The notes under the pieces: generated by a model
Seen by the model: the letters and a program-made list of their open reading frames with translations, nothing else
Database searches by the model: none
Told to the model about the DNA's origin: nothing
In this document: piece after piece, positions 39,188 through 52,993 of the stretch
Layout: each line of letters starts with the position of its first letter
Position numbering within the stretch: position 1 is the stretch's first letter
Assembly (NCBI GenBank): GCA_902524895.1
Contig: CABZFH010000001.1
Coordinates: 186,876 to 250,875, forward strand
DNA: 64,000 nucleotides
Source: an uncultured Alphaproteobacteria bacterium
Lineage (GTDB): Bacteria; Pseudomonadota; Alphaproteobacteria; Methylaequorales; Methylaequoraceae
Direction of reading: 5' to 3'
Program-made: the position numbers and the translations under genes

Positions 39188-40435
39188 ATGTATATTCATA
39201 AAGAATTAATTTCTATACTTTGTTTGATTTTATCTATTGGTGGAATAATTGTTTATAAATTCTTTAGAGACTTCCAACGACTTAATGCTGAACTTAAAAA
39301 ATGGAAAAAGAAACCATTATCTGCAAGAGACTATTTTTTTTTTCATCAATTTGAGCCTGTTGTATTTAATCTGAATTCACATTTAAAAAACTACAACAGT
39401 TCCATTAAAAAAAATAAACGACAGATTTTATTTTATGAAAAGTTTTTCGACTTATTTCCTGATCCTTTGTTTATTGTTGATGAAATCAATCAAATAGTAG
39501 AACTGAACCTTAGCGCAACCAAGCTTGTAGGAAGAGACGCCAAAACAAAAAATATTAATTCAGTTTTAAGGATTCCAAATTTAGGTGATTTAATAATGAA
39601 ATCAAACTTTGAAAAGAAGCCACAAATTTCAACACTAAAACTCGTTTATCCAGTTGAAACGATCTATACAGTTTGGGTTTCCGGAAGTAGTAAATTTATT
39701 AAAAATAAGCTAAATTTTATAAGACTTTATGACTGTACTTCAGAAAAAAAAGTCCAAGAATTACAAACAGAGTTTGTAGCTAACGTTAGTCATGAGTTAA
39801 AAACACCCGTATCAGCGATGGTTGGTTATTGTGAAACATTACTGGGAATTGGAAAAAAAGACGATAAGGTTAGAACAAAGTTTCTTAAAATTCTAAAGAA
39901 AGAGTCTTTGAGAATGAGTTCTCTTGTAAGTGATCTTCTATCCCTTACAAGAATTGAAAGAATAGAACACACAAAACCTGAAGGTATTGTAAATTTAAAT
40001 AAACTTTTAAATGAAATTCAAGATAGTTATTCATCGTCGTTTAAGAACAATAAAATTCTCAAATTAATTATGTCTTCAAAAGAAATAGAAACGATTGGCG
40101 ACTATAATGAATTAAAACAAGTTTTTATAAATATTATCGATAATGCAATTAAATATAGTGATTCAAAATCACCTATTGAATTAAAGGTAAAACCAAATCA
40201 AGAATTAATAAATATCTCAATAAAAGACTTTGGTAAAGGAATCAATGAAAGTGATATACCAATGCTTACTAATAGGTTTTATAGAGTAGATTCTACAAGA
40301 TCTAGAGATCTTGGAAGCACAGGATTAGGCCTATCAATTGTCAAACATATTTTAAACAGGCATCAAAGCGAATTAAGTATTAAATCAAAGATTAATGAAG
40401 GTTCAGAATTCTCCTTTAACCTCCCAATAAAATAA
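39188..40435 (+). CDS. phoR: Phosphate regulon sensor histidine kinase PhoR
   Basis: 415 aa. N-terminal TM, PAS-like region, HisKA H-box SHELKTP, HATPase_c (DNAIKY, GTGLGLSIVK). Lies in the pst/pho locus. Confidence 0.88.
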   Translation: MYIHKELISILCLILSIGGIIVYKFFRDFQRLNAELKKWKKKPLSARDYFFFHQFEPVVFNLNSHLKNYNSSIKKNKRQILFYEKFFDLFPDPLFIVDEINQIVELNLSATKLVGRDAKTKNINSVLRIPNLGDLIMKSNFEKKPQISTLKLVYPVETIYTVWVSGSSKFIKNKLNFIRLYDCTSEKKVQELQTEFVANVSHELKTPVSAMVGYCETLLGIGKKDDKVRTKFLKILKKESLRMSSLVSDLLSLTRIERIEHTKPEGIVNLNKLLNEIQDSYSSSFKNNKILKLIMSSKEIETIGDYNELKQVFINIIDNAIKYSDSKSPIELKVKPNQELINISIKDFGKGINESDIPMLTNRFYRVDSTRSRDLGSTGLGLSIVKHILNRHQSELSIKSKINEGSEFSFNLPIK

Positions 40436-40708: not shown

Positions 40709-40725
40709 TGTCATTAAATTGTAAT
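40709..40725 (+). promoter_or_regulatory. Candidate Pho box (PhoB site) upstream of porin gene
   Basis: TGTCAT at 40709-40714 and TGTAAT at 40720-40725, direct repeats exactly 11 bp apart, about 50 nt upstream of ATG 40775. A possible -10 (TAGACT) lies at 40736-40741. Confidence 0.5.
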
Positions 40726-40774: not shown

Positions 40775-42172
40775 ATGAACAAATTGTTAGTTACTGGAGC
40801 TGTGATGGCGGTTACAGGATTTAGTTCTCAAGCAGTGAGCACTGAAGCACAAATTGATGCTTTACAAAACGAAATATTAAAGATTAAACAGGATATGGCA
40901 TCCGATAAAAGTAAAGCTTATTTTAAAAAAGGCAAAGGCCTAAGTATTAAAAGTTCTGATGGAAAGTTTAGCTTTGAAATTAAAGGTAGGCTGATGTATG
41001 ACTTATCTGCTATTACTGCAGGTAATGACACGGTTGATAACCCGAGTAGAGCTGATAATATTGGAACTTTTGGTAATGAATTTAGAAGAGCTAGATTCAC
41101 TATAAAAGGTGAAGTTGGAGATGGATGGGGCTTCGCATTCCAACCTGATTTTGCTGAAACAGTTGCTGATAATGTTGGTGGCTCAGCAACCGGACCAAAG
41201 GGTGTTGATGTTAAGGACGCTTTAATTTATAAGAAAATTAAAGGCATTGGTAAGATCTCAATTGGAAACGTAAAGTCTGCAGGTGGTCTTTGGGAGAATA
41301 CAAGTTCAAATAGTATTCTTTTCATGGAAAGACCAATGTATAACGAAGCAGCTAACCTAGCACACAGAGCTGGAATTCATTACGATACAGCAGGTGCCTT
41401 TGGAAAGAAATTCCCTCTTCATTTAAAGGCAACACTTGGTGTTGGTGCTGAAGGAGCATGGAGGCAGGAGCAAGAAGACAGTGATACTATTGAAGATAAT
41501 TATGTAGCTTCTGTTGCCACTCATTATACTCATGTGGTGGGTAAGAAACACTATGTAATGATAGGTGGATCGTATACGTATGAAAATCATTCTGATCTTA
41601 GGACAAGGTCTGTAGAAGCCAGAGCTCAAGGGGTTCATACCTTAGGTGAGAAAATTCTAGACACAAACCTTTCTGATATCGAAAGTTATTCTTATGGGGG
41701 ACCACAATTTGCATATTCTAATGGTCCACTTTTTACGGCTGGAGAGTATTATTATGTCAATGCTTCTAGACTTCCAGACTCTGCTGATGATTTAAAAACT
41801 TATGATGATTATAACGCAAATGGTGCATCAATCTTTGCTCATTATTTTCTAACTGGTGGAGCGCACGTTGCGCTAAAACCTGCAAAAGGTTCAATAAGTG
41901 GTGTTAAGTGTAAGGCTGCAATGGGGTGCACTGCCGCTAAAGTAATGTTTGAATTTGCTAACTTTGCCTCTGATGAAGCATCAGAAAATGCAACTGACGC
42001 AAAGGTAATTCACATGGGTTTAAATCACTATTTTAACAGTAATGTAAGATTAATGATCGACGCAGCGAGAGGTCTTTATCAAGGTGGAACTGGAATGTCA
42101 ACAGATGCCAAGGGTACCAATGTCACACATAATATGACAAGTATTCAAACTAGACTTCATTTAAAATGGTAA
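40775..42172 (+). CDS. Phosphate-selective porin O/P family outer-membrane protein
   Basis: 465 aa. Signal peptide, N-terminal coiled-coil (QIDALQNEILKIKQDM), beta-barrel-like alternating pattern, C-terminal aromatic residue (LHLKW). Located between phoR and pstS. Confidence 0.75.
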   Translation: MNKLLVTGAVMAVTGFSSQAVSTEAQIDALQNEILKIKQDMASDKSKAYFKKGKGLSIKSSDGKFSFEIKGRLMYDLSAITAGNDTVDNPSRADNIGTFGNEFRRARFTIKGEVGDGWGFAFQPDFAETVADNVGGSATGPKGVDVKDALIYKKIKGIGKISIGNVKSAGGLWENTSSNSILFMERPMYNEAANLAHRAGIHYDTAGAFGKKFPLHLKATLGVGAEGAWRQEQEDSDTIEDNYVASVATHYTHVVGKKHYVMIGGSYTYENHSDLRTRSVEARAQGVHTLGEKILDTNLSDIESYSYGGPQFAYSNGPLFTAGEYYYVNASRLPDSADDLKTYDDYNANGASIFAHYFLTGGAHVALKPAKGSISGVKCKAAMGCTAAKVMFEFANFASDEASENATDAKVIHMGLNHYFNSNVRLMIDAARGLYQGGTGMSTDAKGTNVTHNMTSIQTRLHLKW

Positions 42173-42200
42173 TTTTTTAAGTTAACCACTCTAAGTAATA

Positions 42201-42238
42201 AAGAGCCTAAAAAATTGTTTCTTAGGCTCTTTTTTTTT
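42201..42238 (+). terminator. Rho-independent terminator after porin gene
   Basis: Perfect 9-bp stem AGAGCCTAA (42202-42210) / TTAGGCTCT (42222-42230), 11-nt loop, followed by T8 (42231-42238). Confidence 0.8.
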
Positions 42239-42301
42239 ATGTTGCAATGATTAGCAAATATTATTTAGATTAGTTAAATACAAAAATTTAATAAAAAGCT
42301 T

Positions 42302-43192
42302 ATGAAAATTCTAATTAATGGAATCGGAAGAATAGGGAAACTTATTGCAAGAGAGCTTTTGGAAAAAGATTCAAATTTAAAATTAGTTTTTATTAATGAT
42401 ATTAACGGAGATGCAGAAACTCAGGCCCATTTGTTGGAATTCGATTCTATTCACGGTCAATGGGATAAAAAAATTAAATTCAATAAAAATAAAATAAAAA
42501 TTGGTTCAAACACTTTATTTTGTTACTCCGAAAATGAATTAAGGGGGTTACCAATCAGGGAGTTTAATATTGATATTGCAATTGATTGTACGGGTAAAAA
42601 CAAAACTACAGATCAGTTAAATCACTACTTCAATCAAGGCGTAAAAAAAGTTTTAGTTTCAGCTCCAATAAGCGAAAAATCACAATCGATTGTTAATTTA
42701 GTTTATGGGGTTAATCATCATATTTATAATCCAAATATTCATAATATAATTACAGCTGCAAGCTGCACTACTAATAGTATTGCTCCTATAATTTTAGTTT
42801 TGAAAAAAGAGTTTGGGATTGAAAGTTGTTGTGTAACTACTATCCATGATGTAACTAATACACAAGTTATAGCAGACATCCCTAAAAAAGATCTAAGAAG
42901 ATCAAGATCCTCTATTAATAATTTAATTCCTACAACGACTGGGTCAGCCAAGGCAATCACATTGATATACCCTGAATTAGAGGGAAAAATAGATGAAGTT
43001 AATAAAATGTTCGAGAAGTACTCCCAAAAAATTTTAAAAGGAATATTAAGTATTGAAAAAAGACCTTTAGTAAGTTCGGATTTTTTAAACAATCCTAACT
43101 CCGTTATTATTGATACCTTATCAACAATGGTTGTTAATAAAAAATTACTAAAAGTTTTTGGTTGGTATGATAATGAATATGCTATGCGCTAA
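42302..43192 (+). CDS. gap: Glyceraldehyde-3-phosphate dehydrogenase-like protein (ArsJ-associated type); appears internally deleted and 3'-frameshifted, possibly a pseudogene
   Basis: NGIGRIGK Rossmann motif, ASCTTNS catalytic Cys, TTIHDVTNTQ, WYDNEY. It lacks about 27 residues (the ...RVPT... strand) between GKI and EVNKMF. The conserved C-terminal helix YALRIIDILKLISKKI* is encoded in the -1 frame at 43183-43233. Confidence 0.7.
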   Translation: MKILINGIGRIGKLIARELLEKDSNLKLVFINDINGDAETQAHLLEFDSIHGQWDKKIKFNKNKIKIGSNTLFCYSENELRGLPIREFNIDIAIDCTGKNKTTDQLNHYFNQGVKKVLVSAPISEKSQSIVNLVYGVNHHIYNPNIHNIITAASCTTNSIAPIILVLKKEFGIESCCVTTIHDVTNTQVIADIPKKDLRRSRSSINNLIPTTTGSAKAITLIYPELEGKIDEVNKMFEKYSQKILKGILSIEKRPLVSSDFLNNPNSVIIDTLSTMVVNKKLLKVFGWYDNEYAMR

Positions 43193-43234
43193 GGATAATA
43201 GACATTTTAAAGTTAATATCAAAAAAAATATAAA

Positions 43235-44479
43235 GTGTTTCTCAATAATATTAGTCAACAAAATCTTTCTTATATTTCCGTTACGATGTCATATTGGCTT
43301 TTTATGCTCACTGATGGGGCTCTAAGAATTATTATTCTTTTCAATTTTCACTTACTGGGTTTTTCGCCATTAGATCTTGCTTATTTATTTTTCGTTTATG
43401 AATTAATGGGTATTTTAACTAATTTACTTGCAGGGTGGATAGCGGCTCGATTTGGTTTAAATATTACGCTTTATGGGGGGTTGATCATACAAATTTGTGC
43501 TTTGAGTCTTCTATTAAATTTAAATAACTTTGATTATACTTCTTCAAAATTAATATTTACAATTTTTGTATATGGCCTTTCGGGTATCGCTAAGGATTTG
43601 GTAAAAATGAGTGCAAAGTCATCAGTTAAATTAATTGTCAATGAAAATCAGCAATCAAAACTTTTTAAATGGGTTTCTACTCTTACTGGCTCAAAAAACG
43701 CAGTTAAAGGATTAGGTTTTTTCCTAGGTGGGGCCTTGATGAGTTTTTTTAATTTTAAAATATCAATAATTATTATGACATTATGTTTAATTATTTTGAT
43801 TTTATTTTTAATGTTATCAAAACCGATAATTCAAAATAAAAAAATTAGAAGTAAACAAATTAAACTTTTTTCAAAATCTAAAAAAATTAACTATCTTTCT
43901 TTTTCTAGAATATTTTTGTTTGGTGCGAGAGATATTTGGTTTGTTGTTAGTCTCCCAATTTTTCTTTATGAAACTTTAAGAAATTTTGACATTACTGATT
44001 CAAAAGCATTCTTTCTTGATGGAGGCTTTCTAGCACTTTGGGTAATATTTTATGGTATTACTCAAGCTTTTACACCAAAAATTATAAACATATCAACAAA
44101 TAATGTTGCAACTCTAATTAAAAGGTCAAAAATATGGTTTCTACATCTTTTGTTTTGCTCAGCAGTAATATCAATAATCAGCTTTTTGTTGAATGATAGT
44201 AACTATTATGTATATTTTTTAATTTTTGGACTTTTTTTATTTGGTATATTATTTGCTGTTAATTCATCGTTACATTCTTTTTTCATACTTGCATTTTCGA
44301 ACAAAATCAATGTTACACTTGACGTAGGTTTTTACTACATGTCAAATGCAACCGGAAGGTTTGTTGGAACATTACTATCAGAGCTAACCTACCAATATTT
44401 TGGTATAGTTGGGGCATTATTTTGCTCAACGATATTCATACCAATAGGGTTACTTTATTTCCTAAAACTAGAAAACTAA
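43235..44479 (+). CDS. arsJ: MFS-type permease resembling organoarsenical (1-arseno-3-phosphoglycerate) efflux permease ArsJ
   Basis: 414 aa, about 11-12 TM helices. N-terminus YWLFMLTDGALRIIILFNFHLLGFSPLDLAYLFFVYELMGILTNLLAGW matches my recollection of the ArsJ family. Sits directly downstream of a GAPDH-like gene, the hallmark ArsJ context. Confidence 0.6.
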   Translation: MFLNNISQQNLSYISVTMSYWLFMLTDGALRIIILFNFHLLGFSPLDLAYLFFVYELMGILTNLLAGWIAARFGLNITLYGGLIIQICALSLLLNLNNFDYTSSKLIFTIFVYGLSGIAKDLVKMSAKSSVKLIVNENQQSKLFKWVSTLTGSKNAVKGLGFFLGGALMSFFNFKISIIIMTLCLIILILFLMLSKPIIQNKKIRSKQIKLFSKSKKINYLSFSRIFLFGARDIWFVVSLPIFLYETLRNFDITDSKAFFLDGGFLALWVIFYGITQAFTPKIINISTNNVATLIKRSKIWFLHLLFCSAVISIISFLLNDSNYYVYFLIFGLFLFGILFAVNSSLHSFFILAFSNKINVTLDVGFYYMSNATGRFVGTLLSELTYQYFGIVGALFCSTIFIPIGLLYFLKLEN

Positions 44480-45024
44480 ATTTTACCATCTAGACCCATT
44501 TGAAAGTATTTATGAATAATTTTGTCTTGGTTTTCGAGTAACCAGTCAATATTTGGTTCATCGTTCATAGCCTTTTGAATTGACTGAGCAGTTGCTTTTC
44601 TATGAATATCAAACAAAATCTTATGATCTAAATTATCATCAGTTGCCACGGAAGGATTTAACCAAACCGAAACAATAATTCCTAGTTCATTAGCCTTTTC
44701 CTTTGGAATATCTCCTGCTCTAACAGAATCAAGAACACCATTAGCAATCGCTGCCTGGACTGTTCCCATCAAAATATTTGTATATCTTTCTTTATTAACA
44801 GTAACTTTACTCACCATTAATGTAGCGGGTCTAACCATAACATCGGTATTCATTATCGCTAAAACCTTTGAATGTCCTTTAGTCTGATTTCCCATTAAAT
44901 TAGCAAATGCGGTACCAAATGGACCATTCATCTCTCCAATAACAACTTCTGGCTCAGCTGCAGTTCCGGGAGGTCCACCAGCTACTAATGATTCTCCAAC
45001 TCTCATAATAAATTTATTTGTCAT
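44476..45024 (-). CDS. fae: Formaldehyde-activating enzyme (Fae) family protein
   Basis: 182 aa. Collinear with methylotroph Fae as I recall it (RVGESLV.G...VVIGE..GP.GTAFANL, ATLMVSKVTVN, GDIPKEKANELGIIVSVW). Confidence 0.65.
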   Translation of the reverse strand: MTNKFIMRVGESLVAGGPPGTAAEPEVVIGEMNGPFGTAFANLMGNQTKGHSKVLAIMNTDVMVRPATLMVSKVTVNKERYTNILMGTVQAAIANGVLDSVRAGDIPKEKANELGIIVSVWLNPSVATDDNLDHKILFDIHRKATAQSIQKAMNDEPNIDWLLENQDKIIHKYFQMGLDGKI

Positions 45025-45098
45025 TTTGTCTCCTTAAATTATTTATTACTTGTAATCTAAAAAATTACATATTTCAAAATTAATTTAAGATTATCTAA

Positions 45099-45126
45099 TG
45101 TCATAAAACTGTAACATAAGTGTCAT
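45099..45126 (+). promoter_or_regulatory. Pho box array (three 11-bp-phased PhoB half-sites) upstream of pstS
   Basis: TGTCATAAAAC TGTAACATAAG TGTCAT, with hexamers at 45099, 45110 and 45121. Nearly identical to the E. coli pstS box CTGTCATAAAACTGTCATATT. Ends about 63 nt upstream of ATG 45189. Confidence 0.75.
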
Positions 45127-45188
45127 ATTTATTTATTTAATTTGATTTATTTTTTAATCTTTAATAACTTTAACAATAAGAGAAAAAA

Positions 45189-46238
45189 ATGAGAAAAACC
45201 TATTTTATTGCCACACTTCTGGCTTTTGGATTTTCTAGTGCAGCATTTGCACGAGATCAGATAAAAATTGTTGGATCATCAACATTTTACCCTTTTGCAA
45301 CGGTAGTTGCTGAGAGGTTTGGAAAAACAAGTGGATTCAAAACACCAGTAATAGAGTCAACTGGATCTGGTGGGGGATTAAAGCTTTTTTGCAAAGGCCT
45401 AGGCACAGAGCACCCAGATATTACAAATGCTTCTAGAAGAATCAAAGGTAAAGAAGTAAAAAAGTGCGCAGAAAATGGCGTTACTGATATCACTGAAATC
45501 AAGGTAGGATTCGACGGAATTGCTATGGCTAACGCTAAAAGTGGTCCAGTTCTTGAGTTAACGCTTAAAGATGTATACCTCGCTTTAGCAAAAGATGTTC
45601 CAGTTGATCCTAACGGTGATACAGTTAAGCCAAATCCATATAAAATGTGGAATGAAGTGAACCCGGCATTACCTGCAGCTCCTATAATAGTAATAGGCCC
45701 TCCTCCAACATCTGGTACAAGAGATGCCTTCAATGAATTAGCAATTGAAAGAGGCTGTAAAACATTTCCTGGAAGAAAAGCTTTAAAAAAGAAGGATAAG
45801 AGACTCTATAAGTCACAGTGCCGATCCGTAAGAGAAGACGGTCCTTATGTTGAAGCGGGCGAAAATGACAATCTAATAATTGAAAAACTAGTTGCCGATC
45901 CAGGTGCGCTAGGCGTTTTCGGTTATTCTTTCCTAGATCAAAATAGAGATAAAGTAAAGGCTGCAAAAGTTGACGGTGTCTTTCCAGAGTTTGAGGCAAT
46001 ATCCTCAGGAAAGTATCCTGTTTCTAGATCACTTTTCTTTTATGTGAAAAATGCTCATGCTGGAGTAATACCGGGCATGAAAGAGTACGTGAAAGAATTT
46101 ACCGCATCAAAGGCTATAGGAAGTGACGGATATCTAGTCGATAAAGGCTTAATTCCATTGGCTGAAAATGAAAGGGCACAATTTGAAGAAGATGGAACGA
46201 AGCTTACTAAATTTGATGGTAAAGTTTTAAATAAATAG
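45189..46238 (+). CDS. pstS: Phosphate ABC transporter substrate-binding protein PstS
   Basis: 349 aa. Signal peptide, GSSTFYPF, ESTGSGGG, SGTRD phosphate-binding motifs. Confidence 0.93.
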   Translation: MRKTYFIATLLAFGFSSAAFARDQIKIVGSSTFYPFATVVAERFGKTSGFKTPVIESTGSGGGLKLFCKGLGTEHPDITNASRRIKGKEVKKCAENGVTDITEIKVGFDGIAMANAKSGPVLELTLKDVYLALAKDVPVDPNGDTVKPNPYKMWNEVNPALPAAPIIVIGPPPTSGTRDAFNELAIERGCKTFPGRKALKKKDKRLYKSQCRSVREDGPYVEAGENDNLIIEKLVADPGALGVFGYSFLDQNRDKVKAAKVDGVFPEFEAISSGKYPVSRSLFFYVKNAHAGVIPGMKEYVKEFTASKAIGSDGYLVDKGLIPLAENERAQFEEDGTKLTKFDGKVLNK

Positions 46239-46245
46239 ATAATTA

Positions 46246-47625
46246 ATGGGTTTTTGGTCTTTTAGTGTTTTCATATTAATAATTGCAATTTCTGCATATT
46301 GGTATGGAAACACTAAGGCCTTGCGCCTAAATTCTAATTCTATTGAAAAACTTCCTTCACTACCTAAATACTATGGAAATTATGCTCTAATATGGCTTAT
46401 ATTTCCCTGTCTTTTAGGTGTCTTTTTATGGATAACTCTCAATACCTATATATTAGATACTATTTTAATTAATCATCTACCTAAGGAACTTGAAAATTCT
46501 TTTGCAGGAGGGATAAACATGTTGGTAGATAGAGTAAAAACAATAAATATTGATAACCCCTTTCCTGGAACAAACCCTGAGTTAATTGACGCAGCTATTT
46601 TTCTCGAAAATAAAAGTAATGAGGTGCGGGCTTATTTTCTATGGGGAATAATATCTATAAGTGTATTGCTTTGTTTTGTATCGTTAAAAAAAATATCTTT
46701 TAAATTTAAGGCAAGACAAGCTGTTGAAAAGTCAAATGTCACATTATTAATTTTATGTTCTATCGTTGCAATAATAACGACCGTTGGAATAGTTTTTTCA
46801 TTAATTTTTGAAGCAATGAGGTTTTTTGACCAAGTATCAATCTTTGATTTTTTATTTGGACTATCTTGGAGCCCTCAAATGGCAATTAGAGAAGATCAAG
46901 TTGCAAGTCAAGGATCATTCGGAGCTATACCACTCTTCACAGGAACTTTGTTAATAACCTTGATAGCAATGTTGGTAGCAATACCTGTTGGACTTGCCTC
47001 CGCTATTTATTTAGCTGAATATTCATCCTCAACCACAAGGTCTATAATAAAGCCCTTATTAGAAATATTAGCTGGGGTTCCAACAGTTGTGTATGGGTTT
47101 TTCGCTGCTATTACGGTTGGACCTTTCTTTCGAGAGTTTGCTGATTTTTTTGGTTTCAATATAGCTTCTGAGAGTGCAATTGCTGCTGGTGGGGTGATGG
47201 GAATAATGATCATCCCATTTATTTCTTCACTCTCAGATGATGTGATCTCAGCCGTTCCTCAATCCCTAAGAGATGGATCTTACGCAATGGGTGCTACTCA
47301 TTCTGAAACAATTAAACGTGTGGTTTTACCCGCAGCCTTGCCTGGTATTGTGGGGGCGATTCTTCTTGCAGTATCAAGGGCTATTGGCGAAACAATGATT
47401 GTTGTTATGGCTGCAGGAATTGCTGCAAATTTAACTTCTAATCCCTTTGAAGCTGTAACAACTGTAACTGTCCAAATAGTAACATTATTAGTTGGTGATC
47501 AAGAATTTGACAGTGCCAAAACACTTGCTGCATTTGCTTTGGGAATTACCCTATTTTGTATGACATTATTCTTAAACCTTTATGCATTAAAAATCGTTCA
47601 AAGGTATCGTGAGAGATATGAATAA
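46246..47625 (+). CDS. pstC: Phosphate ABC transporter permease PstC (long form)
   Basis: 459 aa. EAA-loop region (AMGATHSETIKRVVLPAALPGI). N-terminal extension relative to the E. coli protein. Confidence 0.92.
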   Translation: MGFWSFSVFILIIAISAYWYGNTKALRLNSNSIEKLPSLPKYYGNYALIWLIFPCLLGVFLWITLNTYILDTILINHLPKELENSFAGGINMLVDRVKTINIDNPFPGTNPELIDAAIFLENKSNEVRAYFLWGIISISVLLCFVSLKKISFKFKARQAVEKSNVTLLILCSIVAIITTVGIVFSLIFEAMRFFDQVSIFDFLFGLSWSPQMAIREDQVASQGSFGAIPLFTGTLLITLIAMLVAIPVGLASAIYLAEYSSSTTRSIIKPLLEILAGVPTVVYGFFAAITVGPFFREFADFFGFNIASESAIAAGGVMGIMIIPFISSLSDDVISAVPQSLRDGSYAMGATHSETIKRVVLPAALPGIVGAILLAVSRAIGETMIVVMAAGIAANLTSNPFEAVTTVTVQIVTLLVGDQEFDSAKTLAAFALGITLFCMTLFLNLYALKIVQRYRERYE

Positions 47626-48895
47626 AAATACTCAAATTATTAAATCCTCACTTTTGAAAAGAAAAAGGTCTGAAAAATATTTTAAGTACTTTGGGCTTAC
47701 AGGAATAATTGCAGCACTATTGTTTTTAACTATAATTATAACCTCTATCTTTACAACAGGAAAAAAGGCATTTAAACAAACAGCAATTAAATTAGAAATA
47801 TTTTTTGATCCTAAAATTATTGATCCTGAAAATAAAGGAACAGAGGAAACCTATAAATCTGCAAATTATAAAATCGTTATAAAAAATGCTTTATTAAATT
47901 ATTTTCCCTCTGTAAATAAAAGGATTGATATCAGAGACCTCACAAATTTTATTTCATCTTCAGAAGAAGAAAGACTTTTAGAAATGATACTTAAAGATAA
48001 CACTCTAATTGGTACCACCAAGGAACTATGGCTAACTGCTTCTTCAACTATTGATGTTATTCATAAAAATTTAGAAATGCTAAACATTACAGAAAAAGAT
48101 AGATTAATAGATAATAAAGAAAAAAAGTGGTTTACCAAGTTATTAGATGATGAAAAGCTAAAATTCCAATTCAATAAGACTTTTTTTACCTCCGCTGATT
48201 CAACTGAGCCAGAACAAGCTGGCATTTGGGGATCTGCCATGGGTTCGTTTTTTACTGTATTAGTTACACTTATTCTTTCATTTCCAATTGCTGTAGCGGC
48301 TGGTGTTTTTTTAGAAGAGTTAGCTCCAAAAAATAAATTCACTGATTTCCTAGAAGTTAACATTAACAATCTCGCAGCAGTGCCATCCATAATATTTGGA
48401 TTATTAGGATTAGCAATTTTCCTTAATGTTATGCATTTACCAAGGTCTGCTCCCATAGTTGGTGGATTAGTTCTTGCTTTGATGACTCTGCCAACTATTA
48501 TTATTGCAACTAGAGCCTCACTAAAAGCTGTACCACCTTCAATACGTGAAGCTGCAATTGGATTAGGAGCTACAAAACTACAGACAGTTACTCATCACGT
48601 TCTTCCATTATCATTTCCAGGAATTTTAACAGGAACAATTATAGGTATGTCACAAGCACTGGGTGAAACAGCACCTCTATTGATGATAGGAATGGTAGCG
48701 TTTATTGTTGACGTTCCTGGGTCATTCTTAGATGCTTCAACTGCTCTACCAGTTCAGATATACCTTTGGAAAAGCACAGCTGCTAGAGGTTTTGTTGAAC
48801 TTGCGGCAGCTGGAGTTCTTATACTATTAACTTTTTTAATTCTTATGAACAGTTTCGCAGTTTACATAAGAAAAAAATATGAAAAAAAGTGGTAA
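47609..48895 (+). CDS. pstA: Phosphate ABC transporter permease PstA (long form)
   Basis: 428 aa. [23 protein letters not shown] loop. Overlaps the pstC end. Confidence 0.92.
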
Positions 48896-48899
48896 CTTA

Positions 48900-49664
48900 A
48901 TGAGTTCAAAAATTAAAATTTCTAGTAAAGATGTAAGTGTTTTTTATAGCCAAAATAAAGCTCTAAATAATATCACATTTGATATTGACGAAAAAAAAGT
49001 AACGTCCCTAATTGGGCCTAGCGGTTGTGGGAAATCAACATTTTTAAGATGCTTAAATAGAATGAATGACACTATAGATATTTGCAAAGTTAAAGGAAAA
49101 GTTTTAATAGATAACGAAGATATTTATGCCCCTAATGTTGATCCAGTTTTACTAAGAGCAAGAGTAGGTATGGTCTTTCAAAAGCCTAATCCATTTCCAA
49201 AATCAATTTTTGACAATGTTGCGTATGGACCAAGCATTCACGGATTAGCTAGTAGTAAGGACGAACTAGAAAATATAGTTTTAACAAGTTTACAAAGAGC
49301 AGGTCTTTACAAAGAAGTAAAAAATAGATTATCTGAAACTGGAACATCTTTATCTGGAGGACAACAACAAAGACTTTGCATCGCTAGAGCTATTGCTGTT
49401 AGTCCAGAAATAATACTTATGGACGAGCCATGCTCTGCTTTAGATCCAATAGCTACGGCAATTGTCGAGGAGTTAATTGATGAACTTGTAAAGAACTACA
49501 CGATTGTTATTGTAACTCATTCTATGCAACAAGCAGCTCGTGTATCACAAAATACGGCTTTTTTTCATATGGGTAATTTAATTGAATTTGGATCTACTCA
49601 AAAAATTTTCTCCACACCTCAATTTAAACAAACGCAAGACTACATTACAGGAAAGATCGGATAA
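48900..49664 (+). CDS. pstB: Phosphate ABC transporter ATP-binding protein PstB
   Basis: Walker [10 protein letters not shown], signature LSGGQQQR, Walker B ILMDEP. ATG 48900 lies 4 nt after the pstA stop; the track ATG 48879 is the alternative. Confidence 0.95.
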
Positions 49665-49666
49665 GT

Positions 49667-50320
49667 ATGGATAAACATATAGTAACTAGTTACGATAATG
49701 ACTTAGAATATATAAAAATTTTGATTATAGAAATGGGTGTATTGTTAGAAAAGCAAACGTTTGAAGCAATAGAATTAATAAAACTGCATAATTTAAAAAT
49801 AATGCCTACGATTAGAGAAACAGAAAAAAAAATTAATTCTGCAGAAAAAAGAATAAGAGAATATTCAACAAACACATTAACAAAAAGACAACCGTTAGCG
49901 GATGATTTGAGAAAAATTATTGTATCCATAAAAATTGCAAGCACTCTTGAAAGAATTGGAGACCATGCTGAAAATATTGCAAACAGAATTGAGCAAGCAA
50001 AAATAGTTCCTACTAATTATTTGACTGATTCAATTTATAGGTTAGGGCAATCGGTTATTAAAAACTTATCGCAAGCTCTAACAGCATATGATCAAAATTC
50101 CATAACACTATCTAAAAATGTTTCGCTTGAGGATAAAAAAATAGACCTATTATATGAAACGTGTTTTAGAGAACATCTTGTGCTTATGATGGAAGATAAC
50201 AAAAATATCAGTTATTTTACTCAGATGTTGTTTATTGCTAAAGAACTAGAACGCATAGGAGACCTTTGCAAAAATATTGCAAAAGAAGTTAGTTATAGTG
50301 TGGAAGGCAAGATATCTTAA
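49667..50320 (+). CDS. phoU: Phosphate signalling complex protein PhoU
   Basis: 217 aa. Duplicated PhoU repeat with ERIGDH / ERIGDL motifs. Confidence 0.93.
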   Translation: MDKHIVTSYDNDLEYIKILIIEMGVLLEKQTFEAIELIKLHNLKIMPTIRETEKKINSAEKRIREYSTNTLTKRQPLADDLRKIIVSIKIASTLERIGDHAENIANRIEQAKIVPTNYLTDSIYRLGQSVIKNLSQALTAYDQNSITLSKNVSLEDKKIDLLYETCFREHLVLMMEDNKNISYFTQMLFIAKELERIGDLCKNIAKEVSYSVEGKIS

Positions 50321-51001
50321 ATGTCTAAATCGATTCTAATTGCTGAAGACGATACTTCATTATTACCTCTTTTAGCATATAATTTGAAAAATAATGGTTT
50401 TAAAGTTATTCAAGCGAAGAATGGAGAAGAGGCATTATTAGCATTAAAAGAAAATTTGCCAGATCTTTTATTACTTGATTGGATGATGCCTTCACCAAAT
50501 GGAATTGAAATTTGTAAAATTCTTAGACAAAAAAAAGAAACTAAAAATATTCCAATTATTATGCTCACTGCTAAAAGTGAGGAAGATAACAAAATTGTTG
50601 GACTAGAAAGTGGTGCTGACGATTATATTATAAAACCTTTTAGCACAACGGAACTAATAGCCAGAATTAAAGCTCTTCTAAGAAGAAGTTATACTACCTT
50701 TGATGTCGATATTTTAGAATATAAAAATTTAAAAATTAATCTCAAAGAATATAGAACTTACAGAAATGATAGAACTATCCACTTAGGACCGAAGGAATTT
50801 AAATTATTAAAATATCTTATGGAAAATCCAGGAAGAGTTTTTAGCCGTGAACAATTACTAAACGCTGTTTGGGGACATGGTATTTTTGTAGAATTAAGAA
50901 CAGTTGACACTCACATTAGAAGGCTTCGAAAATCTATAAATCTAAAAGGTGAGCACAATTTGATACGCACAGTCAGATCAGCTGGATACTCTTTAGATTA
51001 A
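50321..51001 (+). CDS. phoB: Phosphate regulon response regulator PhoB (OmpR family)
   Basis: 226 aa. Receiver domain (ILIAEDD, LLLDWMMP, LTAK) plus winged-helix (LGPKEFKLLKYLM, VDTHIRRLRK). Starts 1 nt after the phoU stop. Confidence 0.92.
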   Translation: MSKSILIAEDDTSLLPLLAYNLKNNGFKVIQAKNGEEALLALKENLPDLLLLDWMMPSPNGIEICKILRQKKETKNIPIIMLTAKSEEDNKIVGLESGADDYIIKPFSTTELIARIKALLRRSYTTFDVDILEYKNLKINLKEYRTYRNDRTIHLGPKEFKLLKYLMENPGRVFSREQLLNAVWGHGIFVELRTVDTHIRRLRKSINLKGEHNLIRTVRSAGYSLD

Positions 51002-51043: not shown

Positions 51044-52993
51044 ATGAGCGAAAAAAACGGTGTAACCTACATTGTAACAGTTTATAACAAAGAAAAATAT
51101 ATTCTTAATTCACTAGAATCGATTAAACAAAATCTTTTTAAAGATTTGCAAATTATTATTGTTAATGATGGATCTGTGGATAAATCTAAAGAAAGAATTG
51201 AGAAGTTCATTAAATCAAATCCTAATTTGGATATTCAATTTCTAACTCAGGAAAACCAAGGACCCAGTATAGCAACAAATAATGCCATCAAGTTTGTAAA
51301 ATTTAATTACATCAAAATGTTAGATGGTGATGATATTTTATCTCCTAACTCTGTGAAACTAATGAAAAAAGAAATGGAAACTCTTAACCTTGATTTATTG
51401 TATGGAGATTGGAAATGGGATGCAGATTACAAAAATTATAAATTTAAAAAGTGTGACTATAAGGCAAAGTTTTTTAAAAATGCCTTTGAAAAGATTTTAC
51501 TGAGAGGATGGGGTGGATCAAGTAATCTAATGGTAAAAACCAATACGCTAAAAAAGATAAATGGATGCGATACAAGAATCTTTATTCAAGATTACTCATT
51601 GCCACTCAGAATTGCAGGACATCATTTAAAGTCAAAATCTATTAATCCATTTAGAATTGGTCTAACAAAAAAAATAATTTGTGTAGGACCAAAATTTCAA
51701 AAAAATAGAATAATCACAAATGAAGCACAGACCCTGCACGATTTATCAATGGTAGCACTAAATTTTCTTGAAGATCACAAATTTGTAAATGAAAATTTAA
51801 AAATTAAAGTCTTAAAAAAAATCAAAAGACGATGCTGGAAATGGAAAAGTAAAATTCAGAAAAAAAGTTATTTTAGTTTTGATTTTTTAAGCTTTGTTTG
51901 TAGTTACTTGTGGACTGATCAGAATATAGAAAAGATTAAATATGAAGTAATTAACACATGGAAACAAGAAAATATAAAAAACGTCAATAACAATATTTCC
52001 CGAAAAAAAATTCTAGTTTATGTAGGTTTAGATCTTTTAGGAGATGGAATAATAAAGATTCCTTTTTTACATAATCTTAGAAAAATTTTTCCAAACGGCG
52101 AAATTACTTGGGTAGCAGGAAAAGGTAAATCGACGATTAAAGAAAATTTAAACCCAATTTCGAAAGAACTTATAGATTACATAAGAGATGATGCAGGCAT
52201 AGGGTCTAATTTTTCAGAACTTTTTTTTAAAAGTAGAATTTCTAAAAATTATGATATTGTCATTGATACGCAAAAAAGACTACTCACGACTTTGATTGTT
52301 AGAAAAGTAAAAACTAAACTTTTCATTTCTCCAAGTTGTAATTTCTTATTTTCAGACATCAAGCCCAACATAAAACAACAAACAAAAAGTTTGGCAGAAG
52401 ATCTCTTAGATTTAAGCCTTCTCTTGACTTATGATCAGAATGTTTATGCAGAAAAAATTATTTTGCCAGCTTTGTATAAAAAAAATTCTAAAAACTTTGA
52501 TGATCGGTATAATTTTAAAAAAGTTGCTATTTGTCCTGGTGCTTCAAACGAATGGAAAAGATGGCCAAAGGAAAGTTTTTCCGAAATCGCAAATTATTTA
52601 ATAAAAAAGAAATTTTTACCAGTTTTTTTTCTTGGACCTAATGAAAGAAATCTTTATAAATTTTTTAAAGATGAAATCCCAAAAGCTCTTTTTCCACTAC
52701 AAATGGAATCGAAAAAGAAAACAGACCCTATACAAACCATTGCTTTATCTAGCACATGCAACTTTGGAATTTCTAATGATACCGGATGTGGACACTTACT
52801 TGGAATTTCTGGGATTCCACTTATTACTCTTTTTGGTAAAACAAACGAAGTAAAGTTTAGACCTTTCAATTATTTCAATACTAATATTGTAATTTCTTCC
52901 AGCTCATTTGACAAAAATGCAGAAATATCAAGCATACCCATAACTATTGTAAAAAATAAAATCGATGAAATTATCAGAAAAAACAATACTTAA
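51044..52993 (+). CDS. Fusion glycosyltransferase: GT2 (N-terminal) + GT9 heptosyltransferase-like (C-terminal)
   Basis: 649 aa. N-terminus YIVTVYNKEKY...IIVNDGSVD and DGDD (GT2 DxD). C-terminus ILVYVGLDLLGDGI, ICPGASNEWKRWP, NDTGCGHL (GT9/RfaF-like). Confidence 0.7.
   Translation: MSEKNGVTYIVTVYNKEKYILNSLESIKQNLFKDLQIIIVNDGSVDKSKERIEKFIKSNPNLDIQFLTQENQGPSIATNNAIKFVKFNYIKMLDGDDILSPNSVKLMKKEMETLNLDLLYGDWKWDADYKNYKFKKCDYKAKFFKNAFEKILLRGWGGSSNLMVKTNTLKKINGCDTRIFIQDYSLPLRIAGHHLKSKSINPFRIGLTKKIICVGPKFQKNRIITNEAQTLHDLSMVALNFLEDHKFVNENLKIKVLKKIKRRCWKWKSKIQKKSYFSFDFLSFVCSYLWTDQNIEKIKYEVINTWKQENIKNVNNNISRKKILVYVGLDLLGDGIIKIPFLHNLRKIFPNGEITWVAGKGKSTIKENLNPISKELIDYIRDDAGIGSNFSELFFKSRISKNYDIVIDTQKRLLTTLIVRKVKTKLFISPSCNFLFSDIKPNIKQQTKSLAEDLLDLSLLLTYDQNVYAEKIILPALYKKNSKNFDDRYNFKKVAICPGASNEWKRWPKESFSEIANYLIKKKFLPVFFLGPNERNLYKFFKDEIPKALFPLQMESKKKTDPIQTIALSSTCNFGISNDTGCGHLLGISGIPLITLFGKTNEVKFRPFNYFNTNIVISSSSFDKNAEISSIPITIVKNKIDEIIRKNNT

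Follow-up and report, generated by a model that had tools for sequence, protein, structure and literature searches.

Arsenate can be removed from bacterial cells in two steps, in which GAPDH forms 1-arseno-3-phosphoglycerate and ArsJ exports it (a mechanism summarised in PMC5930303). The present analysis concerns a gap-arsJ pair found in a 64-kb stretch of DNA from an uncultured alphaproteobacterium (contig CABZFH010000001.1); "the window" denotes this whole stretch, and all coordinates are window-based. It is likely that the pair is a gap-arsJ arsenate-export cassette set in a phosphate-starvation locus and that it is decaying in the window genome.

Pairs of this kind have been described in several genetic settings. 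In Pseudomonas aeruginosa DK2 (Chen, Yoshinaga, Garbinski and Rosen 2016, as summarised in PMC5930303), as in the lineage to which the window belongs, a dedicated type I GAPDH paralogue adjoins ArsJ, a permease belonging to the major facilitator superfamily (MFS), and intact alleles of the lineage pass both NCBIfam models. However, the lineage carries its pair in a pho locus rather than in an ars operon with arsR, arsC or acr3, its proteins share approximately 45-50% identity with ArsJ and GAPDH of proteobacteria, and the copy in the window, unlike that of P. aeruginosa DK2, is damaged. The var operon of Vibrio cholerae (arsR-varG-varH-arsJ; PMC9601151) likewise combines a dedicated GAPDH with ArsJ. 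In that species, ArsJ is the main determinant, a mutant in the dedicated GAPDH has a milder phenotype, and the glycolytic Gap also forms the arsenical (PMC9601151); the greater weight of ArsJ fits the finding that gap is hit more often than arsJ in the lineage studied here. In contrast to V. cholerae, the window cassette neither contains nor adjoins a gene for ArsR or the VarH phosphatase; arsenate induction through ArsR cannot be assumed.

Physical linkage with phosphate uptake genes is also known. In the arsenic island of Halomonas sp. GFAJ-1 (pstBACS with mfs1-mfs2(arsJ)-gapdh; PMC5930303), a pst operon is linked to arsJ-gapdh, although this is an island of a hyperresistant organism with the order arsJ-gap, whereas the window has a pho locus of an AT-rich streamlined marine genome and the order gap-arsJ. 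The phosphorus (P) acquisition islands of Prochlorococcus hold gap1, mfs, arsR and chrA together with phoBR and pst genes (PMC10504305), and the arsR-sphX-gap-arsJ genes of Nodularia are induced as part of the measured P-limitation response (PMC9846622). As in the window lineage, a GAPDH and MFS pair is kept with P-acquisition genes in a variable region and in P-poor waters; however, these islands belong to another phylum with other flanking genes, and the window locus has no ArsR gene. The sequence-only reading, a first interpretation made from the letters of the window, had inferred a coupling of arsenate export to phosphate scavenging, a reasonable idea that had already been reported (PMC9846622, PMC10504305, PMC5930303). 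Since this coupling is documented in Prochlorococcus, Nodularia and Halomonas, the window cassette is a further case of a known system and not a new mechanism.

Within the context of SAR11, the published route of arsenate resistance comprises LMWPc_ArsC and the aquaporin AqpS, with gap-arsJ unmentioned (PMC6426599). The same pressure, a high arsenic to phosphorus ratio (As:P) in P-depleted surface water, has been invoked for it, whereas its chemistry differs, i.e., arsenate is reduced and arsenite leaves the cell. Literature searches for ArsJ with SAR11 or Prochlorococcus returned almost nothing. If the present reading is true, an abundant AT-rich marine lineage has GAPDH-ArsJ arsenate export inside its pho locus, alongside published SAR11 work that gives the ArsC-aquaporin route only.

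Identity of the gap-arsJ pair

The elements of the pair are as follows.

42302..43233, + strand: ArsJ-associated GAPDH gene, predicted pseudogene; the open reading frame (ORF) as read stops at 43192, and the ancestral TAA lies at 43231-43233
42989..42995, + strand: junction of an 81-nucleotide (nt) in-frame deletion, from DNA alignments with L001, L002, L004 and L005
43181..43182, + strand: 1-nt deletion, CC to C, from three-frame translation and alignments
43235..44479, + strand: arsJ, MFS organoarsenical/arsenate efflux permease of 414 amino acids with a GTG start (NF033734, 451.7 bits)

The GAPDH-type ORF and the 414-residue permease that the sequence-only reading had described are both present (ORF list, Pfam, NCBIfam), and its naming of the permease as ArsJ was borne out by the NCBIfam model: against NF033734 (MFS_ArsJ), the permease scores 451.7 bits with a cut-off of 400, and its residues 12-410 align with positions 2-390 of the 392 in the model. 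An intact ArsJ allele from the population scores 460.8 bits. The GAPDH ORF (42302-43192, + strand, 296 amino acids) is matched by both Gp_dh_N and Gp_dh_C of Pfam, and its best NCBIfam model is NF033735, ArsJ-associated GAPDH; however, it reaches only 384.1 bits of the required 450, and does so in two stretches. This shortfall and the split match were the first sign that gap is damaged. Because an intact allele (L118, 337 amino acids) scores 464.9 bits in a single stretch, above the cut-off, the gap of the lineage is a member of NF033735 of which the window copy is a damaged version. The ORF nonetheless keeps the NAD-binding motif NGIGRIGK as well as ASCTTNS and TTIHD (with the catalytic Cys and His), aligned with solved GAPDHs. 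The gene lies directly 5' of arsJ, and the order gap-arsJ is found in approximately 73 of the 80 ArsJ loci listed in a scan of other taxa that covered one genome per GTDB species.

In an intact cassette, the dedicated GAPDH would turn arsenate and glyceraldehyde-3-phosphate into 1-arseno-3-phosphoglycerate, and the ArsJ pump would remove this arsenical. The cassette fills a variable slot between a Pho-box-controlled porin and fae/pstSCAB-phoU-phoB, and the ecological reason for such linkage might be the entry of arsenate through Pst under P scarcity.

A set of 115 other ArsJ proteins has 172 positions with a conservation of 90% or more; the ArsJ of this lineage (the window and P0121-P0124) departs from the family at approximately 31 of them, even in intact alleles. 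Many of the changes favour amino acids whose codons are rich in A and T (I, N, K, F, Y). It appears to be an unusually divergent member of the family that still scores above the curated cut-off.

Lesions in the window copy of gap

The GAPDH ORF is approximately 41 amino acids too short because it is damaged. Aligned with solved GAPDHs, it skips approximately residues 228-251 of 1gd1 (Bacillus stearothermophilus; 227 is followed by approximately 252) and ends after WYDNEY. Comparison with the approximately 99% identical contig L001 reveals that 81 nt are absent after 42989, i.e., the 27 amino acids DGIAVRVPVLNTSLSDCVFQLKKKVTV, which include the RVP arginine. In GAPDHs, this residue (Arg231 in B. 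stearothermophilus numbering) binds the substrate phosphate. In the intact alleles, a 6-nt direct repeat (TAGATG) lies on either side of the segment, and a slippage deletion between the repeats has taken out the phosphate-binding arginine together with the 27 catalytic-domain residues around it.

L001 also has an extra C at 43181/43182, and the loss of this nucleotide in the window shifts the frame of the GAPDH C-terminal helix, which is thereby lost. The window ORF ends with WYDNEYAMR and a stop codon, while the lost tail, YALRIIDILKLISKKI followed by a stop, is readable in the +2 frame; in that other frame, the C-terminal helix reads CYALRIIDILKLISKKI and terminates at the TAA 43231-43233, one base before the GTG of arsJ. 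The sequence-only reading had noted a 42-nt spacer between the two genes. Such a spacer is indeed there, but it is a by-product of the 1-nt frameshift, which moved the gap stop; in intact alleles, a single nucleotide separates the stop of gap from the start of arsJ (TAA-A-GTG), an arrangement in which both genes would be translationally coupled. Neither the damage to gap nor the frameshift origin of the spacer had been recognised in that reading, which also missed a Fae-like gene between arsJ and pstS.

Both missing stretches are present in L001, L002, L004, L005 and 8 further loci, and the two deletions occur in the window only. The 296-residue GAPDH product forms a singleton cluster among approximately 15 billion proteins, the other alleles at 97-100% identity being either 337 amino acids long or differently disrupted; exact look-ups of the window ArsJ, of the 296-residue GAPDH and of the porin returned no record. 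Judging from its sequence, the gap copy in the window is a pseudogene, and loss of its activity is presumed. Alternatively, the shortened GAPDH might be a neofunctionalised working variant, such as a protein with a regulatory role or one that binds arsenate, as it keeps the Rossmann motif, the catalytic Cys (ASCTTN) and the His (TTIHD), and its large deletion is in frame. This is highly improbable, considering that the variant is unique to the window genome, scores under the curated family cut-off, and has lost the RVP arginine, the C-terminal helix and 27 catalytic-domain residues kept by every other aligned GAPDH.

The state of arsJ in the window

The arsJ gene is an open ORF in which comparison with the population shows neither an indel nor a stop, and it bears six nonsynonymous and two synonymous private substitutions. 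Two of the former are radical and put charged residues at positions that are otherwise invariant: G383E (44381-44383) replaces a residue that is Gly in 115 of 115 ArsJ relatives, and V262D (44018-44020) one that is Ile or Val in all 115, while near-identical arsJ alleles keep both G383 and V262. The departure of the window ArsJ from family-invariant residues at 383 and 262 bears on activity and not on homology. The pump is probably impaired, and arsJ seems to be drifting or, at best, working alone. Since gap is broken and the pump carries predicted damaging changes, the pair in the window genome is probably being lost. For annotation, the window copy is best recorded as a pseudogene with a doubtful arsJ and not as a capacity for arsenate resistance.

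Alleles in the population and the probable reality of the lesions

Relative to the intact allele, at least seven other independent loss-of-function lesions affect gap or arsJ in related loci. In gap, these are the nonsense changes L72* (L001) and K59* (L006, L007) and 1-nt deletions at nt 754 (L008) and nt 626 (L116); in arsJ, they comprise a 1-nt deletion at nt 126 (L002, L003), Q200* (L006) and a 1-nt insertion at nt 522 (L008). With the window included, six independent lesions fall in gap and three in arsJ. No frameshift or stop was found in the porin, fae, pstS, pstC or pstA genes of the same contigs.

The frequency of such lesions can be gauged from an unbiased sample, which consisted of the window and 10 loci anchored on an identical Fae protein, the state of the cassette not being a criterion. 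Both genes are intact in 8 of the 10 Fae-anchored loci. All four lesion events of the sample fall inside the cassette, which makes up 28.5% of the compared length (p = 0.007), and the cassette, with a 36% share of the length compared, also holds 12 of the 19 private substitutions of the window (p = 0.016). Among population singleton substitutions, broken genes have 12 nonsynonymous to 3 synonymous changes, compared with 16 to 19 in intact genes (Fisher p = 0.03), an excess that is the pattern expected of true pseudogenes. The ratio of nonsynonymous to synonymous polymorphism (pN/pS) is 0.27 for gap, 0.175 for arsJ and 0.015-0.20 for the flanking genes, i.e., far below 1 in every case. With 8 of 10 loci intact and such low ratios, the cassette appears to be kept by purifying selection across the lineage and to be knocked out repeatedly, gap more often than arsJ.

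It is conceivable that the cassette is intact in the organism itself and that both gap deletions are artefacts of amplification, assembly or consensus building. The window is part of a draft assembly, in a contig of 364,641 nt, the damaged 296-residue product has been observed once, and multiple-displacement amplification can also delete between short direct repeats. Nonetheless, an artefact appears quite unlikely, given that two lesions lie in a single 1-kb gene whereas approximately 60 other genes of the window look uninterrupted, with no obviously split gene among them. Moreover, the frameshift sits in a CC dinucleotide and not in a long homopolymer, the private substitutions of arsJ and of the cassette fit relaxed selection, and independent nonsense or frameshift alleles of both genes are found in several unrelated assemblies.

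Several points weigh against the view of a decaying export cassette coupled to the Pho regulon. An assembly or amplification artefact is formally conceivable for both gap lesions. L001 and L006-L008 entered the comparison by way of a cluster whose products are fragmentary, and thus the raw lesion count overstates the frequency of loss. Pho-coupled expression in the lineage is hypothetical, since no promoter, Pho box or ArsR operator was found for the pair. Furthermore, the predicted effect of G383E and V262D derives solely from conservation, and arsJ is still open and above the family cut-off; because its ORF is intact and the housekeeping Gap of V. cholerae can supply 1-arseno-3-phosphoglycerate (PMC9601151), residual arsenate export is possible without the dedicated GAPDH.

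Taken further, the last point would mean that ArsJ alone is a working exporter, either of free arsenate or of 1-arseno-3-phosphoglycerate made by the housekeeping GAPDH, and that the dedicated GAPDH is dispensable. The uninterrupted arsJ is compatible with this, as is the fact that a V. cholerae arsJ mutant is far more sensitive than a mutant in the dedicated GAPDH, the glycolytic Gap also making the arsenical (PMC9601151). The larger number of independent lesions in gap (six vs. three in arsJ) and its higher pN/pS point in the same direction. However, G383E and V262D affect positions invariant in 115 relatives, the private substitutions of arsJ have a near-neutral ratio of nonsynonymous to synonymous changes, and the frameshift sets the gap stop 42 nt from the arsJ start, which probably weakens translational coupling. 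Chen and colleagues reportedly found in 2016 that E. coli gained no resistance from either gene by itself. A pump that works on its own is therefore regarded as rather unlikely for the window, and decay of a two-gene cassette remains the preferred reading. Within this context, the mostly intact alleles, the independent knock-outs and the alternative gene content of the same slot together provide a small, testable example of how genes are gained and lost in nutrient-stress loci.

A side observation concerns database searches. The 90%-identity cluster of P0121, whose representative is an ArsJ, also holds GAPDH members of 337 amino acids; this is a caveat for searches made with cluster representatives. 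The intact gap alleles were hidden from the first homology search because their cluster is represented by ArsJ.

Pho boxes, the porin terminator and expression of the pair

The regulatory elements around the pair are listed below.

40709..40725, + strand: Pho box before the porin, TGTCATTAAATTGTAAT, 66 nt 5' of the porin ATG (exact match)
42200..42238, + strand: intrinsic-terminator-like hairpin and T9 after the porin, stem-loop 42200-42229 (folding -15.1 kcal/mol, z = -3.3)
42239..42301, + strand: short upstream region of gap, without a Pho box (reading of the sequence, pattern searches, promoter scan)
45099..45126, + strand: three 11-bp-phased Pho box repeats before pstS, TGTCAT-N5-TGTAAC-N5-TGTCAT (pattern search)

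When the 64 kb were scanned for the exact pattern TGTMAY-N5-TGTMAY, with 100 shuffles as a control, three boxes were found (40709, 45099 and 45110), compared with 0.19 expected, and none of the 100 shuffles reached three. The boxes are confined to the upstream regions of the porin and of pstS, in agreement with the sequence-only reading, which had placed the pair between an OprO/P-type porin and pstSCAB with Pho boxes before both. That reading had also given the pair a short upstream region of its own behind a strong terminator. The hairpin after the porin supports this, as no shuffled sequence folds as stably; the terminator scan did not call it (its loop exceeds the limit of the tool), and its presence is shown by folding. 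It is kept in relatives with divergent porins. As a side observation, the stem at 42203-42229 is conserved in L090, L101, L121 and L122, while the core is inverted, reading AAAAATTGTTTC in the window and GAAACAATTTTT in the relatives, which looks like a flip of a palindromic core.

No Pho box was found upstream of gap in pattern searches that allowed one mismatch, and a promoter scan of 42239-42301 gave no sigma-70-like site on the + strand. The region contains an imperfect palindrome, TTGC-AATGATTA-GCAA (TTGC-N8-GCAA, 42242-42257), which is conserved in relatives, with a doubly changed variant, TTGT...ACAA, in L101. Its role might be that of an operator or of the -35 element in a weak promoter. 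An ArsR-type operator was considered for this region and set aside, as the weak TTGC-N8-GCAA palindrome is insufficient for such a claim; the sequence-only reading had likewise seen no convincing Pho box or ArsR operator here. The pair would most likely be expressed by transcription that reads through the porin terminator, in which case it would be Pho-dependent, or else from its own weak promoter. In other lineages, the 350 nt preceding gap are 5.5-fold richer in Pho-box-like sites than the background of the locus, and in L017 such a site, CGTCATAAAACTGTAAC, lies at -42 upstream of gap.

The variable slot and linkage in other lineages

The genes that frame the pair are the following.

39188..40435, + strand: PhoR-like sensor histidine kinase, which opens the pho locus (best NCBIfam models PnpS/PhoR, 269-280 bits, below the cut-offs; its position is kept in related loci)
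40775..42172, + strand: OprO/P-type phosphate-selective porin (Pfam Porin_O_P, 1.1e-21)
44476..45024, - strand: Fae-like gene of the formaldehyde-activating enzyme family (Pfam Fae, 3.5e-59; TIGR03126, 130.4 vs. a cut-off of 118)
45189..51001, + strand: pstS-pstC-pstA-pstB-phoU-phoB (curated NCBIfam cut-offs and Pfam)

PstC, PstA, PstB, PhoU and PhoB exceed the curated NCBIfam cut-offs, and PstS is matched by PBP_like_2 and TIGR02136. A scan of metagenomes with the porin, which yielded 26 loci (one of them near-identical) and is not an unbiased population sample, revealed that the interval between the porin and fae is variable. Among loci with the phoR-porin...fae-pstS backbone, it is empty in L095, L096, L099, L109, L111 and L112. 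It holds gap-arsJ in the window lineage, and in L090 and L101 gap directly follows the porin, the contigs ending inside gap. In L091, L092 and L103, the same slot carries an exopolyphosphatase (ppx) and a SixA-like phosphatase, and in L097, L098 and L017, it carries a PlcP-like metallophosphoesterase, a GT4 glycosyltransferase and a diacylglycerol kinase (dgkA). A sister lineage (L125) has the order dgkA-gap-arsJ-fae-pstCAB-phoU-phoB, with 59% identity in GAPDH and 56% in ArsJ.

In L101 and L121/L122, the porin is 63-77% identical and gap 98-99% identical, a mosaic that suggests recombination across the slot. One proposal is that the interval between the porin and fae/pstS serves as a swap slot for accessory phosphate-stress modules in streamlined marine alphaproteobacteria, in which gap-arsJ would be kept or lost under fluctuating local As:P selection and would decay gap-first to ArsJ-only intermediates, such that the frequency of loss-of-function alleles might mark arsenate stress in the ocean. 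This is a tentative suggestion, somewhat more apt to be wrong than right in this full form.

The porin itself varies considerably. Its identity ranges from 63% to 100%, with in-frame indels (L101, L121, L122 and L090 compared with the window), whereas gap, arsJ, fae and pst are 97-100% identical. This variation suggests recombination or diversifying selection on a surface protein.

In the scan of other species, no ArsJ among the matches listed exceeded 51% identity, the best being from SAR116 single-cell genomes and Rhodobacteraceae. As for the claim that an arsenate-export pair is linked to the Pho regulon, the linkage is real and recurrent: pst/pho genes lie at most 8 kb from gap-arsJ in approximately 19 of the 80 listed loci of other species. 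However, the window itself holds no intact unit, its gap being deleted and frameshifted and its arsJ carrying G383E and V262D. Such linkage occurs in SAR116 (phoU-pstBACS, in some cases with phoR, divergent from gap-arsJ) and in other marine lineages, with examples in Methylophaga and Porticoccaceae.

Neighbouring genes and sequence context

The window has a G+C content (GC) of approximately 29% and is densely coding, with long, tightly packed ORFs across the 64 kb. The cassette shows no difference in GC from its surroundings. A recent horizontal acquisition was considered and rejected, as there is no GC shift and the sister lineage has the pair in the same place; because this lineage is only 56-59% identical, the pair has long been at this place.

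Across the whole window, neither an Rfam nor a tRNA scan gave a match to an rRNA, a tRNA or another Rfam family, and thus no RNA marker is available for taxonomy. The MutS protein of the window has one relative at 96% identity and the next at 57%, and its named matches are only "Rickettsiales bacterium" and "Alphaproteobacteria bacterium". A SAR11 label is plausible for a streamlined marine genome of 29% GC.

The Fae-like gene converges on arsJ, with a 4-nt overlap at the stop codons, and is divergent from pstS, with which it has a common Pho-box region (45025-45188). It adjoins pstS in every related locus, whatever the cargo of the slot, and is under very strong constraint (pN/pS 0.015). Downstream of phoB lies a gene for a 649-residue multi-domain glycosyltransferase (51044-52993, + strand), which is found at the same place in the sister lineage (L125, 9780-10011). 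This enzyme may be part of the phosphate-stress locus, with a role, for example, in lipid or envelope remodelling.

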